Sequence record: NC_008515.1
Direction: 5' to 3' (one strand)
DNA from: Escherichia phage RB32
DNA: 64,000 nucleotides
The notes beneath the pieces were generated by a model, which did no database searches, was not told the DNA's origin, and was given only the letters and a program-made list of their open reading frames with translations. The position numbers and the translations under genes are program-made. Below are positions 48,920 to 54,673 of the stretch, piece by piece (within the stretch, counting starts at the first letter, position 1; the number at the start of each line of letters is the position of its first letter).

Positions 48920-50035
48920 ATGGAAAAATTTATGGCAGAGTTTGGACAAGGATATGTCCAAACGCCATTTTTATCGGAAAGCAATTCAGTAAGATATAAA
49001 ATAAGCATAGCGGGTTCTTGCCCGCTTTCTACTGCGGGGCCATATGTTAAATTTCAGGATAATCCCGTTGGAAATCAAACATTTAGTGCAGGTCTTCATT
49101 TAAGAGTTTTTGACCCTTCTACAGGAGCATTAGTTGATAGTAAGTCATATGCTTTTTCTGCTTCAAACAATACAACATCTACCGCTTTTGTCAGTTTCAT
49201 GAATTCTTTGTCAAACAATAGACTTGTTGCTATATTAACTAGCGGAAAGGTTAATTTTCCTCCTGAAGTGGTATCTTGGTTAAGGGGAGCAGGAACTTCA
49301 GTTTTCCCATCAGATTCAGTATTGTCAAGATTTGACGTGTCATATGCTGCTTTTTACACTTCTTCTAAAAGAGCTATCGCATTAGAGCATGTTAAACTAA
49401 GTAATAGAAAAAGCACAGATGACTATCAAACTATGTTAGATGTTGTATTTGATAGTTTAGAAGACGTCGGAGCTACAGGATTTCCTAAAAGAACATACGA
49501 AAGCGTTGAGCAATTTATGTCTGCGGTTGGTGGAACTAATAACGAAATTGCGCGATTGCCAACTTCAGCTGCTATAAGTAAACTTTCTGACTACAATTTA
49601 ATTCCTGGTGATGTTCTTTATCTTAAAGCACAACTATATGCTGATGCTGATTTACTTGATCTTGGAACTGCAAATATATCTATTCGTTTTTATGATGCAT
49701 CAAATGGATATATTTCCTCGACCCAAGCTGAGTTTACTGGGCAAGCTGGGTCTTGGGAATTAAAAGAAGATTATGTAGTTGTTCCTGAAAATGCAGTAGG
49801 ATTTACGATATATGCACAAAGAACTGCCCAAGCAGGTCAAGGCGGCATGAGAAATTTAAGCTTTTCTGAAGTATCAAGAAATGGCGGAATTTCGAAACCT
49901 GCTGAATTTGGTGTCAATGGTATTCGTGTTAATTATATCGGTGAATCCTCTTCACCTCCAGATATAATGGTACTTCCTACACAGGCATCGTCTAAAACTG
50001 GTAAAGTGTTTGGACAGGAATTTAGAGAAGTTTAA
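48920..50035 (+). CDS. 35: Long tail fibre hinge connector gp35
   Basis: 371 aa, T4 gp35 position and approximate length. Confidence 0.92.
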   Translation: MEKFMAEFGQGYVQTPFLSESNSVRYKISIAGSCPLSTAGPYVKFQDNPVGNQTFSAGLHLRVFDPSTGALVDSKSYAFSASNNTTSTAFVSFMNSLSNNRLVAILTSGKVNFPPEVVSWLRGAGTSVFPSDSVLSRFDVSYAAFYTSSKRAIALEHVKLSNRKSTDDYQTMLDVVFDSLEDVGATGFPKRTYESVEQFMSAVGGTNNEIARLPTSAAISKLSDYNLIPGDVLYLKAQLYADADLLDLGTANISIRFYDASNGYISSTQAEFTGQAGSWELKEDYVVVPENAVGFTIYAQRTAQAGQGGMRNLSFSEVSRNGGISKPAEFGVNGIRVNYIGESSSPPDIMVLPTQASSKTGKVFGQEFREV

Positions 50036-50066: not shown

Positions 50067-50074
50067 TATAAATA
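50067..50074 (+). promoter_or_regulatory. Late promoter TATAAATA for gene 36
   Basis: Exact TATAAATA 24 nt upstream of the gene 36 ATG. Confidence 0.6.
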
Positions 50075-50756: not shown

Positions 50757-53700
50757 ATGGCTACTTTAAAACAAATACAATTTAAAAGAAGCAAAATTGC
50801 AGGTCAACGTCCTGCAGCTTCAGTATTAGCCGAAGGTGAATTGGCTATAAACTTAAAAGATAAAACAATTTTCACAAAAGATGACTCAGGTAGTGTTATA
50901 GAATTAGGTTTAAAATATGGAGGAACTATAAATGGATCTTTAGAGGTTACAGAAAATATAACTGGAACTTTAATTGGAAATTCTAGTACAGCTACTAAAT
51001 TGCAAACATCTAGGAAAATTAATGGTATATCTTTTGATGGATCAAAGGACATTACACTAACTCCATCTGATATAAATGTAAATAGTACAACATTTATAAA
51101 AAATAACGGCGAATTACCCGTTGATGCTAATTTAGATACATACGGGCCCATTGAAGAATATCTTGGTGTTTGGTCGAAATCTACTTCAACAAATGCGCAA
51201 CCAGCAAATAAATTCCCAGAAGAAAATGCCGTAGGTGTACTAGAAGTATTTGTGGCCGGCCAATTTGCTGGCACTCAGCGTTATACTGTAAGATCTGGTA
51301 ACGTCTATATTCGTTCCTTATCTGCTAAATGGAATGGCGTCGATGGTCCATGGGGTGTGTGGCGTAATGTTCAAGCGTCAACTCGTCCACTTTCACAAAC
51401 GATTGACCTTGATAGCTTGGGAGAATTAGAACATTGTGGCTTATGGAGAAACAGTTCAAGCGCAATCGCATCATTTGATCGCCATTATCCAGAAGAAGGA
51501 TCAGCCGCACAAGGATTTTTAGAAATATTTGAAGGTGGTTTATACACGAGAACGCAGCGATATACTACCCGCATGGGTATGGTTTATACTCGTTGTCTCG
51601 CTGCCGCATGGGATGCTAGTGCACCTAAGTGGGAGGAATGGAAGCAGGTTGGTCATGGCACACCAGCGACTTTCTATGACGGAGATCTGAATGATTTTAA
51701 AACTCCTGGGTTATATAATATTTTAGGCACTGATGCCGTTATTAACTGTCCTACCGGTGAAGGTTTGCCGACTGTTATTGTTGGTTTGCTGGAAGTTAAA
51801 CAGCGTGCTTCTGGCGGTGCTATTTTCCAAAAATTTACTACTGCCGGAACGGGTGCAACTACTCGCGATCGTATTTTTGAGCGTGCATATACTGGTGGTG
51901 TGTGGGGTGCATGGAACGAAGTATATACATCTTATTCTCTGCCAATTACTTTGGGTATGGGTGGTGTTAAAGCTCAATTAGCGGAGCTAGATTGGAACAC
52001 ATTTGATTTTGTTCCTGGCAGTATGTTTAGCGTTCCTTTGAACAAAATAAAGAACATGCCAGCAAATATGGATTGGGGTACGATTGACGGAAACTTGATC
52101 ATGTTTTCCGTTGGACCAAGCGAGGGTGACGGAACAGGTCGAACAATTCAATTATGGCGTGGAAGAGCAACACAATCAGACTATCGTTATTTTGTTGTTC
52201 GTATTACTGGACCTTTGACGAATAGAACTTGTACAGCTCGACGCGTTGTTCTTGAAGATGGTCGCCACACATGGACAGCTCAACAAGATTTTAATGGCGC
52301 AGTTAACTTCGGTGCTCCTACCAATTTTAACTCTACTGTTAATCTTAATAACACTACCACTTTTAAAACAGCAGTTAAATTCCGCTCATCTAATGCATTC
52401 CGTATGTATGCCGGAAAATTTGGTACAATTTTCCGTAATGATGGAGAGAGTCTTTATATTCTTTCCACCGACGAAGATGATCAAGATGGAAACTTTAATA
52501 CAAATAGACCTTTCCGTTATGAATTAAGAACTGGTGATGTTACTTTGGGTGGTGCTGTTGGTGCTAACGTTTTAAAATTAAAACGTGATTCTCTCACCGC
52601 ATTTTTTGGCGGTGATATTAACATGAAAGGCACGATGACTTTTGACGCCGGACGTTTAGGATCACGAGATTATTTTAAATTTAACCATTGGGGTGATAGC
52701 AATAACGCTCGTGATAACATCATCCAGTTAGAAGATAGCCAAGGCGCCCATTTTTCCACTGAACGTACTTTAGCGACAGGTGCAATTAAAACTCGTTTCT
52801 TTGGCGAAACATTCACTGATGGTACATTATACCTAAATCAGATGAATAATAGCTCTGAACGATTCTCTATCAACAATTGGGGAAATTCAGAAGTTGGTCG
52901 CGCGGCAGTATTGGAAGTCGGCGATTCAAAAGGTTATCACTTCTATGCTGAACGCAGGACAGATAACAGTTTGATGTTTGATGTTGCTGGTTCTTTGATC
53001 GTGCATGGACCTAGCGGAATAACCATCAAAAACTCAACTGGTGCACGACATATCTGGTTTAGAGATGATAGCGATGCAGAAAAGGCTGTTATCTGGGCTA
53101 CAGATGAGGGTATTTTACATATTCGCAATAATCATGGGGGTTCATTTAGTCATCACTTCCAGGGTGCAATGATTAAAGCGGGAGAGCGTGTTCCATATAG
53201 TGGTGAATACGCTCTTATCCGTGGTAATATTTCCGGTGGTGCATGGGTAGACTGGCGAGATCGTCCGGCTGGATTGTTGGTAGACTGTCAGGACTCACGA
53301 AATCAAGCATATAGCATTTGGAAAGCTACTCATTGGGGCGAACAGCACCTTGCGGCGATGGGTGTTCATGCTGGCGGTGGTAATCCTCAGGTTGTATTGC
53401 ATGTGGGTGGGAGTGATTATGCATTTGCATTTAACGGTGATTTTACTGCTGGTGCTGCTGTATATTGTAACGACGTTTATATTCGTTCTGACCGTCGTCT
53501 GAAAATTAATGTTGAAGACTACGAAGAGAATGCGGTGGATAAGGTAAATAAACTCAAAGTTAAAACCTATGATAAAGTTAAATCTCTTTCTGACCGCGAA
53601 GTTATCGGCCATGAGATTGGTATTATCGCACAGGATTTGCAAGAAGTATTACCGGAAGCTGTTAGCACTTCTAGTGTCGGATCTCAGGATAACCCAGAAG

Positions 53701-53840
53701 AAATTTTAACAATTTCTAACTCTGCTGTGAACGCGCTTTTAATTAAGGCTATCCAAGAAATGAGCGAAGAAATTAAAGAATTAAAAACGCCTTTCTTCAC
53801 TAAAATTGCTCGCAAAATTAGTAATTATTTTAAATTCTAA
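50757..53840 (+). CDS. 37: Long tail fibre distal subunit gp37 with C-terminal chaperone-like domain
   Basis: 1027 aa; C-terminal ~116 aa begin at the motif [11 protein letters not shown] (S911), resembling autoproteolytic intramolecular chaperone domains of other phage fibres. Confidence 0.92.
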
Positions 53841-53846
53841 CAACAA

Positions 53847-53859
53847 GGGGCTTTGCCCC
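53847..53859 (+). terminator. Stem-loop GGGGC-UUU-GCCCC after gene 37
   Basis: 5-bp GC stem followed by tttggag; weak U-tract. Confidence 0.4.
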
Positions 53860-53872
53860 TTTGGAGAAAATT

Positions 53873-54673
53873 ATGGCAGTAGTTGGAGTTCCTGGCTGGA
53901 TTGGAAGTTCAGCCGTAAATGAAACGGGTCAGCGCTGGATGAGTCAAGCAGCTGGTCAATTAAGATTGGGTGTTCCTTGCTGGATGAGTCAATTTGCAGG
54001 TCGCTCAAGAGAAATTATTCATACACTTGGAGCGGACCATAACTTTAATGGTCAATGGTTCCGAGATAGATGTTTTGAGGCAGGTAGTGCACCTATAGTG
54101 TTTAATATTACCGGAAATTTGGTATCATATTCTAGAGACGTTCCTTTATTCTTCATGTACGGAGATACACCTAATGAATATGTTCAGTTGAATATTGGTG
54201 GCGGCGTCCATATGTGGGGTAGAGGTGGACAAGGTGGATGGACTCATTCCGGCGGAGATGGTAATGGTCAACAAGGTGGTCATTGTATTCAAAATGACAT
54301 CGGTGGACGATTAAGAATTAATAACGGTGGAGTAATTTGTGGTGGAGGTGGAGGTGGAGGTGGTATCGCTTATCGTCCTCACTCTGGTGCAAAATGGCAA
54401 GATATTGGTGGTGGTGGAGGAAGACCATTTGGCCCAGGAGGAGGCGGAGGTTATTCCGGCGGCGCAGCTTCTTATGATGGCCCAGGAGGTGGTTATAATT
54501 ATGGTAATGCTCACTCTGGCCAGGGTGGTGATGCTGGCGCAAATGGACAAAATGCCTGGCATGATGGCGGTAAAGTTCTAAAAGTTGGAGCTGGTGGCGC
54601 TGCCGGATATGCTGTTATAGGATCAGCTCCAACATGGCAAAATGTTGGAGTAATATATGGTCCAAGGGTATAA
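53873..54673 (+). CDS. 38: Glycine-rich receptor-binding adhesin gp38 (T2/T6 type)
   Basis: 266 aa from the ATG at 53873 (the track start at 53861 is a TTG); N-terminus [28 protein letters not shown] and poly-Gly motifs separated by variable segments. Confidence 0.85.

Follow-up and report, generated by a model that had tools for sequence, protein, structure and literature searches.

How is the distal tip of the long tail fibre of Escherichia phage RB32 built, and which surface structure of the host does it recognise? We addressed this question on a window of 64,000 nt of the phage genome (NC_008515.1), in which the genes of the locus follow the order g36-g37-g38-t and gene 38 lies directly 3′ of the gp37 gene. 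Here, a T-even coliphage carries a distal long-tail-fibre tip module of the T6/S16 type; taken as a whole, the locus is very probably best explained by a self-cleaved gp37 capped by an OmpA-binding gp38. A position of gp38 at the fibre tip of the virion has already been shown for S16 and T2-type phages. Chance can be discarded as the origin of the locus features because of the Pfam matches of gp37 to Peptidase_S74 (PF13884; residues 911–969, E 1.2e-14, 54.8 bits, cut-off 22) and of gp38 to GP38 (PF05268; E 6.1e-69, 232.6 bits, cut-off 25) and Gp38_N (PF21721; E 9.8e-21, 73.9 bits, cut-off 25). The genes and the signals around them are the following:

50067..50074, plus strand: T4-type late promoter consensus TATAAATA, 5′ of g36
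50757..53840, plus strand: gene 37, long tail fibre distal subunit of 1027 aa (phrog_1699, E 1.7e-233)
53847..53859, plus strand: stem-loop GGGGC-TTT-GCCCC in the intercistronic gap, after the stop of g37 and before the ribosome-binding site of g38
53873..54673, plus strand: gene 38, receptor-recognising adhesin of 266 aa (Pfam, PHROG, PDB, model)

An exact-sequence cluster look-up identified gp37 with the gp37 of RB32 (ABI95067.1) and of RB33, and gp38 with the gp38 of RB32 (ABI95068.1 / YP_803186.1). Trojet et al. 2011 (PMC3157838) likewise report that g38 of RB33 is identical to that of RB32. On the nucleotide level, a single additional G in the window is the sole difference from the RB33 record KM607001.1 in the 60,673 nt compared. 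The record has a single G where the window has GG at 54224–54225 (codons R117/G118 of gp38), and since the missing G shifts the reading frame of gene 38, a truncated gp38 of 146 aa is annotated in KM607001.1. The gap falls near position 156232 of the record and is probably a sequencing error. Host-range predictors trained on this record would mis-handle the truncated RB33 adhesin.

Neither g37 nor g38 was found to have a late promoter of its own; the closest TATAAATA precedes g36 and, being the single one near the locus, suggests that g36, g37 and g38 are probably co-transcribed. The stem between g37 and g38 is preserved in T4_ev240 and fFiEco06, although the bases that form it differ. It was considered as a g37/g38 terminator and rejected as such, as a consensus scan did not report it and its folding z-score of −1.48 is not significant; it is recorded here as a conserved stem-loop. 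The ATG of gene 38 at 53873 is preceded 7 nt 5′ by GGAG (53863–53866) and is also the start annotated in GenBank, the reading frame from there to 54673 giving the anticipated 266 aa. The mechanical list of open reading frames opens gene 38 at a TTG at 53861, four codons before this ATG.

The original prediction had assigned a chaperone-like domain of about 116 residues, beginning at IRS(911), to the C-terminus of gp37. The relevant features are:

53472..53486, plus strand: DVYIR, gp37 residues 906–910, predicted last strand of the mature fibre and docking surface of the gp38 N-terminus (alignment)
53484..53489, plus strand: predicted scissile bond Arg910-Ser911 with Ser911 as nucleophile (conserved Ser/Lys, alignment)
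53487..53837, plus strand: intramolecular chaperone (Peptidase S74) domain, Ser911–Phe1027 (Pfam, PDB, AF2 model)
53502-53504, plus strand: codon of Lys916, the partner of Ser911 (invariant in 24 homologues)

The motif IRSDRRLK begins at residue 909 (nt 53481), which places the serine at position 911 and the lysine at position 916, and residues 911–969 cover profile positions 1–57 of 58 of PF13884. A sequence search of the PDB returned S16 gp37 (6F45_A, E 1.9e-11) for the C-terminus. Ser911, Asp912, Leu915 and Lys916 are invariant among 24 homologues with 29–91% identity; the homologue search gave 33 matches, mostly short or partial proteins, and thus a set adequate for a conservation test rather than for a broad survey. 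The AF2 model of the domain (pLDDT 80.6) displays a mixed α/β fold with a long coiled-coil helix at its end, and its top ten PDB matches are intramolecular chaperones only, namely MyRF ICA (7DC3, E 6.6e-6), GA-1 (3GUD) and endoNF (3GW6). The Pfam match, the conserved Ser/Lys pair and the expected fold of the model support the assignment of the gp37 C-terminus as an S74-type intramolecular chaperone domain with an intact Ser/Lys pair; its counted length (Ser911–Phe1027) is 117 residues, in good agreement with the predicted one. The unusual basic and aromatic C-terminal tail of the domain is common to RB33, T6 and fFiEco06, while the other homologues end the chaperone domain in ordinary coiled-coil sequence. 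This tail is predicted simply to extend the terminal helix, and we regard it as very unlikely that the released fragment acts after cleavage, for example as an aid in loading the matching gp38 attachment domain of the T6 type, or in association with the membrane.

By homology, a cut at R910/S911 is predicted to yield a mature gp37 of 910 aa and a released fragment of 117 aa. The mapped S16 site DLNVS^SDRRIKK aligns with DVYIR^SDRRLKI of the gp37 studied here, and the site of fPS-phage gp37, DVYIR^S, aligns with R910/S911 (PMC7917993). DVYIR is also kept in the gp37 proteins of T6 and fFiEco06, while the approximately 200 residues before it diverge. According to Trojet et al. (PMC3157838), gp37 of T2/T6 undergoes proteolytic cleavage and is capped by gp38. 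These cleavage reports concern S16 and T2/T6 rather than RB33 or RB32 specifically, which would leave room for an S74 domain that stays, uncleaved or inactive, in the mature fibre. Such a retention is highly improbable, however, because neither the Ser911/Lys916 pair nor the SD.RLK motif around it varies, the context of the cleavage site equals that in S16 and the fPS phages, and gp38 can dock only on a tip bared by loss of the domain, which is the situation in the S16 structure (PMC7917993; PMC6851490). Self-cleavage of gp37 at Arg910-Ser911 remains the preferred reading.

The second component of the tip, gp38, can be subdivided into three regions, the last of which contains four variable segments defined as low-conservation runs in an alignment of 50 gp38 sequences:

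[quoted passage not shown]
54011..54193, plus strand: central conserved β-helix region, aa 47–107 (85–98% identity to all compared adhesins)
54194..54607, plus strand: receptor-binding (polyglycine sandwich) domain, aa 108–245, which behaves as an exchangeable cassette
54239..54274, plus strand: variable segment 1, about aa 123–134 (low conservation)
54365..54406, plus strand: variable segment 2, about aa 165–178 (low conservation), containing R168 and H170-S-G-A173
54452..54517, plus strand: variable segment 3, about aa 194–215 (low conservation)
54539..54592, plus strand: variable segment 4, about aa 223–240 (low conservation), with D220 slightly upstream

Besides the two Pfam families, gp38 matches phrog_2056 ('host specificity'), phrog_1121 ('tail fiber adhesin') and one PHROG family of unknown function. 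At the thresholds used, neither Pfam nor the PHROGs returned a T4-type assembly-chaperone family, the Pfam matches being restricted to GP38 and Gp38_N. The sequence matches in the PDB are 9V85 (8.5e-73) and 6F45_D (3.8e-49), and the same two entries are the only PDB matches of the AF2 model (pLDDT 87.4), with TM values of 0.86 and 0.82, respectively; the model displays the polyglycine-II sandwich fold. The families and the matches to the PP01 and S16 gp38 crystal structures support the assignment of gp38 as an adhesin of the T2/T6/S16 type and not a T4-type assembly chaperone, in line with the T2/T6-type adhesin of the original prediction. In the attachment domain, W9 and W22 do not vary among the 50 homologues, in which W37 reaches a conservation of at least 90%, and the role of the three conserved tryptophans has been described (PMC6851490). 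This domain is 97.8% identical to those of T6 and M1 and 52–59% identical to those of FL08, AV119 and wV7. The central region (aa 47–107) consists of strands modelled with a pLDDT above 90. Glycine accounts for 26.6% of the residues of gp38, with one motif, GGGGGGGG, at 157–164 and a second one of 15 residues at 179–193; the invariant glycine columns of the homologue alignment include 116–121, 135–136, 158–162 and 182–190. Together with the four low-conservation runs, whose cores lie at about 124–132, 166–177, 208–215 and 228–239, they reproduce the proposed alternation of poly-glycine motifs and variable segments.

The exchangeable character of the receptor-binding domain is visible on the DNA level. 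The identity to T4_ev240 is 90–100%, falls to 43–61% over 54207–54650 and then returns to 96%, and many phages align to the window only as far as 54195. In alignments with known adhesins (T6, M1, FL08, AV119 and wV7), the identity over aa 108–240 amounts to 100% with wV7, 91.7–92.5% with the OmpA-dependent type-1 adhesins of FL08/AV119, 45.8% with T6 and 45.5% with M1. The variable segments and R168, H170–A173 and D220 are common to gp38 and FL08/AV119, and the OmpA-contact residues proposed for FL08, facing OmpA loops 2–4, are R165, H167–A170 and D217 (npj Viruses 2025, PMC12032242). In their text, Trojet et al. (PMC3157838) describe a dependence of RB32 on OmpA and a sensitivity to the LPS composition, and chimeras between RB5 and RB32/RB33 that carry the RB32/RB33 variable region gain the OmpA/LPS specificity. 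For RB32/RB33 gp38, these RB5 chimeras demonstrate what had been anticipated from the sequence, namely that the host range is set by the gp38 variable loops. The receptor of RB32/RB33 gp38 is E. coli OmpA, dependent on the composition of the LPS core, and about 92% of the residues of its receptor-binding domain are the same in FL08/AV119.

Phage M1 was tried as a predictor of the receptor. M1 gp38 binds OmpA. At 85% identity it aligns with 56% of the query, a part that comprises only the N-terminal and β-helix half, and M1 was dropped as a basis for the receptor call because of the low identity of its variable region. The receptor can be predicted from the variable segments alone and not from the overall similarity of gp38 proteins, since the closest structure, PP01 (63% identity), binds OmpC. 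As a receptor other than OmpA, Tsx is suggested by the near-identity of aa 1–46 to T6 gp38, and OmpC by the best PDB match of gp38 being the OmpC-binding PP01 gp38. Neither candidate is at all likely: specificity maps to the variable segments and not to the N-terminus, the similarity over aa 108–240 is low to T6 and high to the OmpA-dependent FL08/AV119, and RB32 with the identical protein needs OmpA (PMC3157838). OmpA is thus retained as the receptor. That gp38 is instead a T4-type assembly chaperone outside the virion, with gp37 itself contacting the receptor, is next to impossible, since the position of the gene at that of T4 gene 38 and the older designation 'distal long tail fiber assembly catalyst' in GenBank records of some relatives are outweighed by family matches limited to the GP38 adhesin and Gp38_N, a fold equal to that of the PP01 and S16 adhesins, a gp37 end formed by a cleavable chaperone domain and not by a T4-type needle tip, and the altered receptor use upon exchange of the gp38 variable region (PMC3157838).

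For the preferred self-cleaved, gp38-capped tip, we propose the following scenario. The reaction sequence would start with a gp37 precursor of 1027 aa, in which the Ser911–Phe1027 chaperone might aid folding of the trimeric β-helix. After trimerisation, the chaperone would cut itself off by a Ser911/Lys916-catalysed cleavage of Arg910-Ser911, and this cut would bare the DVYIR tip. Subsequently, one gp38 monomer is expected to dock on DVYIR via its N-terminal three-helix domain (W9, W22, W37), the presumed 3:1 stoichiometry of gp37 to gp38 following from homology. The C-terminal half of gp38 would form the polyglycine-II sandwich with the conserved glycine motifs as its core, and the four variable segments would constitute the distal loops contacting the receptor OmpA.

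Published work already covers the tip architecture, its processing and its modular variable loops, as well as the receptor of RB32/RB33 gp38, and the finding is correct but ordinary. The locus nonetheless represents a clean natural case of three-way modularity, composed of the gp37 shaft, the T6-type pair of gp37 tip and gp38 attachment domain, and the OmpA type-1 receptor-binding cassette, which is of use for the design of chimeric fibres.

Among the known systems, the gp37-gp38 tip of Salmonella phage S16 (PDB 6F45) has the same architecture, with a trimeric gp37 whose C-terminal chaperone domain is autocleaved and a monomeric gp38 built from a Trp-prong attachment domain, a β-helix and a polyglycine sandwich, as in the gp38 described here. 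The two gp38 proteins share 43% identity and differ in the receptor, S16 recognising OmpC and the present phage OmpA, and the gp37 proteins are unrelated in sequence before the last five residues of the mature tip. The closest solved structure is the receptor-binding domain of PP01 gp38 (9V85; 63% identity, TM 0.86, rmsd 2.7 Å), but its variable loops differ, and the receptor of PP01 is the OmpC of E. coli O157 (PMC12892980). The type-1 adhesins of FL08 and AV119 are OmpA-dependent like the present gp38 (PMC12032242); R165/H167–A170 and D217 of FL08 correspond to R168/H170–A173 and D220, and one residue of the contact region differs, V166 of FL08 being replaced by P169. T6 gp37 has the same DVYIR/SD motif and the same 28-residue chaperone tail, whereas its residues ~700–905 are a different module and the variable segments of T6 gp38, ~46% identical to those here, bind Tsx. 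The MEROPS S74 domains of endosialidase K1F, GA-1 and T5 pb1 and the eukaryotic MyRF ICA share the fold and the Ser...Lys (i, i+5) catalytic arrangement with the gp37 domain despite a low sequence identity of 10–21%, the spacing in T5 pb1 being given by Ser1264/Lys1269 (PMC4690869). In these proteins the domain completes a self-sufficient tip, whereas its release from gp37 would uncover a dock for a separate adhesin.

The T2/T6-style tail-fibre tip is confirmed, and the original prediction of a gp37 with a cleavable C-terminal end followed by a glycine-rich gp38 adhesin is supported. The tip module is already known, as an annotated and experimentally characterised part of a sequenced phage. 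The initial description was accurate to within one residue (a C-terminal piece of 117 residues, given as about 116), and the 266-aa gp38 and its poly-glycine motifs were found at the expected places. The relevant features are:

50757–53840, + strand: gp37 ORF, long tail fibre distal subunit (1027 aa)
53847–53859: short GC-rich stem-loop, GGGGC-TTT-GCCCC, between the g37 stop codon and the g38 Shine-Dalgarno/ribosome-binding site
53873 (ATG)–54673, + strand: gp38 ORF, receptor-recognising adhesin (266 aa), adjoining the gp37 ORF

The gene order g34-g35-g36-g37-g38-t matches that of other T-even phages, a late-promoter consensus occurs near the locus only 5' of g36, and a GGAG is positioned 7 nt 5' of the gp38 ATG. 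The intercistronic stem is kept with an altered sequence (GGGGG-AAATG-CCCCC) at the equivalent position in T4_ev240 and fFiEco06 and may act in RNA stability, attenuation or translational coupling.

Several lines of evidence from sequence and modelling agree that the gp37 C-terminus is an intramolecular chaperone domain. The motif IRSDRRLK starts at residue 909 (nt 53481) and places Ser911 and Lys916 at the head of the 117 terminal residues, of which 911–969 match Peptidase_S74 (“chaperone of endosialidase”; E 1.2e-14, 54.8 bits, Pfam cut-off 22). When 24 homologues of 29–91% identity are aligned, Ser911, Asp912, Leu915 and Lys916 show no variation. The C-terminal 137 residues match the gp37 construct from S16 in PDB 6F45 (E 1.9e-11) and, more weakly, another phage tail fibre and the MyRF ICA domain. 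The AlphaFold model of residues 861–1027 (pLDDT 80.6) consists of a mixed alpha/beta unit and a subsequent long terminal helix; its ten best matches in the PDB are exclusively structures of intramolecular chaperones: MyRF ICA (7DC3), GA-1 (3GUD) and endoNF (3GW6). The chaperone-like domain originally read from the sequence is thus borne out by the Pfam match, the invariant Ser/Lys pair and the structural matches of the model. The same Ser/Lys (i, i+5) arrangement occurs in T5 pb1, where the pair Ser1264/Lys1269 acts on the bond between Thr1263 and Ser1264, a mechanism proposed earliest, according to the same source, for K1F endosialidase (PMC4690869). The mapped cleavage site of S16 gp37, DLNVS^SDRRIKK, has been aligned with DVYIR^SDGRLKI of Yersinia T-even phages (PMC7917993). 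The window carries DVYIR^SDRRLKI at the aligned site, and cleavage is therefore predicted at Arg910|Ser911, which would leave 910 aa in mature gp37 and set free the C-terminal 117 aa. For T2 and T6, Trojet et al. state that gp37 is cleaved and then capped by gp38 (PMC3157838).

A tail of basic and aromatic character closes the chaperone domain (aa 1011–1027; 53787–53837); it is alike in T6 and fFiEco06 and absent from the other S74-domain homologues found, which finish in ordinary coiled-coil sequence. Further upstream, gp37 aa ~106–385 (51072–51900) comprise, as judged by eye, three tandem copies of a unit of ~60–100 aa; copies 1–2 (aa 106–325) match a “tail collar fiber protein” PHROG, and within one copy lies NVYIRS, similar to the cleavage-site strand but without the subsequent D-R-LK. 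A Gp34_trimer domain (PF21446; E 1.4e-14) is present at aa 525–587 (52329–52517), and residues 518–631 match the solved gp34 structures 4UXE and 5NXF; this module is therefore common to the two fibre subunits, proximal and distal. In gp35, the proximal hinge connector (48920–50035), residues 58–112 match Pfam ILEI (interleukin-like EMT inducer / FAM3 fold; E 6.7e-8, 33.4 bits, cut-off 27).

Gp38 contains 26.6% glycine, with GGGGGGGG at 157–164 and a second glycine motif at 179–193. Its only Pfam matches are GP38 (E 6.1e-69) and Gp38_N (E 9.8e-21), and its PHROGs label is “tail fiber protein; host specificity”. The PDB sequence search returned two chains only, the PP01 gp38 receptor-binding domain (9V85; E 8.5e-73) and S16 gp38 (6F45_D; E 3.8e-49), and the AlphaFold model (pLDDT 87.4) matches solely the same two (TM 0.86 and 0.82). 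Three tryptophans of S16 gp38 plug into gp37 (PMC6851490); they correspond to W9, W22 and W37, which are invariant or nearly so among 50 homologues. In the same alignment, four low-conservation runs (about 124–132, 166–177, 208–215 and 228–239) lie between invariant glycine motifs, a profile which matches the glycine-rich motifs and hypervariable segments reported by Trojet et al. (PMC3157838). An assembly chaperone of the T4 type is excluded; gp38 is the T2/T6-type adhesin initially proposed.

Exact-sequence look-ups identified the 266-aa protein as RB32 gp38 (ABI95068.1 / YP_803186.1) and showed the 1027-aa gp37 to be identical to those of RB32 and RB33. By megablast, only one sequence reached 99% identity, that of Enterobacteria phage RB33 (KM607001.1), annotated at this locus as “long tail fiber distal subunit | tail fiber adhesin”. 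The sole difference in 60,673 bases compared is an extra G in the window (GG at 54224–54225; one G fewer at about 156232 of KM607001.1), and because of the missing base the RB33 record carries a truncated “tail fiber adhesin” of 146 aa. The codons concerned encode a GRGG motif invariant in 50 homologues, and RB33 g38, sequenced independently by PCR, is stated by Trojet et al. (2011) to be identical to RB32 g38 (PMC3157838). Given this agreement and the identity with RB32 gp38, the intact frame is almost certainly the true one. The only new item here is that gene 38 in the public RB33 record probably contains an error of one base.

That the variable loops of gp38 set host range, as originally supposed, had already been demonstrated by Trojet et al., and the receptor was likewise on record: RB32 is OmpA-dependent and sensitive to LPS composition, and recombinants of the Tsx-dependent RB5 that had gained the variable region of RB32/RB33 changed to OmpA/LPS (PMC3157838). 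The switch therefore delimits specificity to a segment of ~400 bp containing the four variable segments. At the DNA level, T4_ev240 is 87–100% identical across g37 and into g38 for ~110 codons, drops to 43–61% over 54207–54650 and then returns to 96%, and many other phages align only as far as 54195, the first glycine motif. Such exchange of cassettes at glycine motifs has been described before in published work. The distal gp37 shaft next to the docking strand (aa ~700–905; 52857–53470) is a separate mosaic module, near-identical in T4_ev240.

T6 gp37 has the same DVYIR|SD motif and its chaperone tail is identical, but its module at ~700–905 is a different, unrelated one; fFiEco06 likewise keeps DVYIR|S and the chaperone domain with an unrelated ~700–905, its gp38 being 98.9% identical. 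The gp38 attachment domain (aa 1–46) is of the T6/M1 type (97.8% identity), and by sequence the gp37 partner fits this T6-type pairing. T6 (Tsx) and M1 (OmpA, with a different loop set) have only the N-terminal half in common with gp38, the variable region being about 45% identical. In contrast, FL08, AV119, wV7 and KIT03 combine the same receptor-binding domain with an Ac3-like attachment domain (52–59% identity). The Gp38 proteins of FL08 and AV119 are OmpA-dependent “type 1” adhesins (PMC12032242), to which residues 108–240 are 91.7% and 92.5% identical, and R168/H170-A173 and D220 are the equivalents of the contact residues R165/H167-A170 and D217 in FL08.
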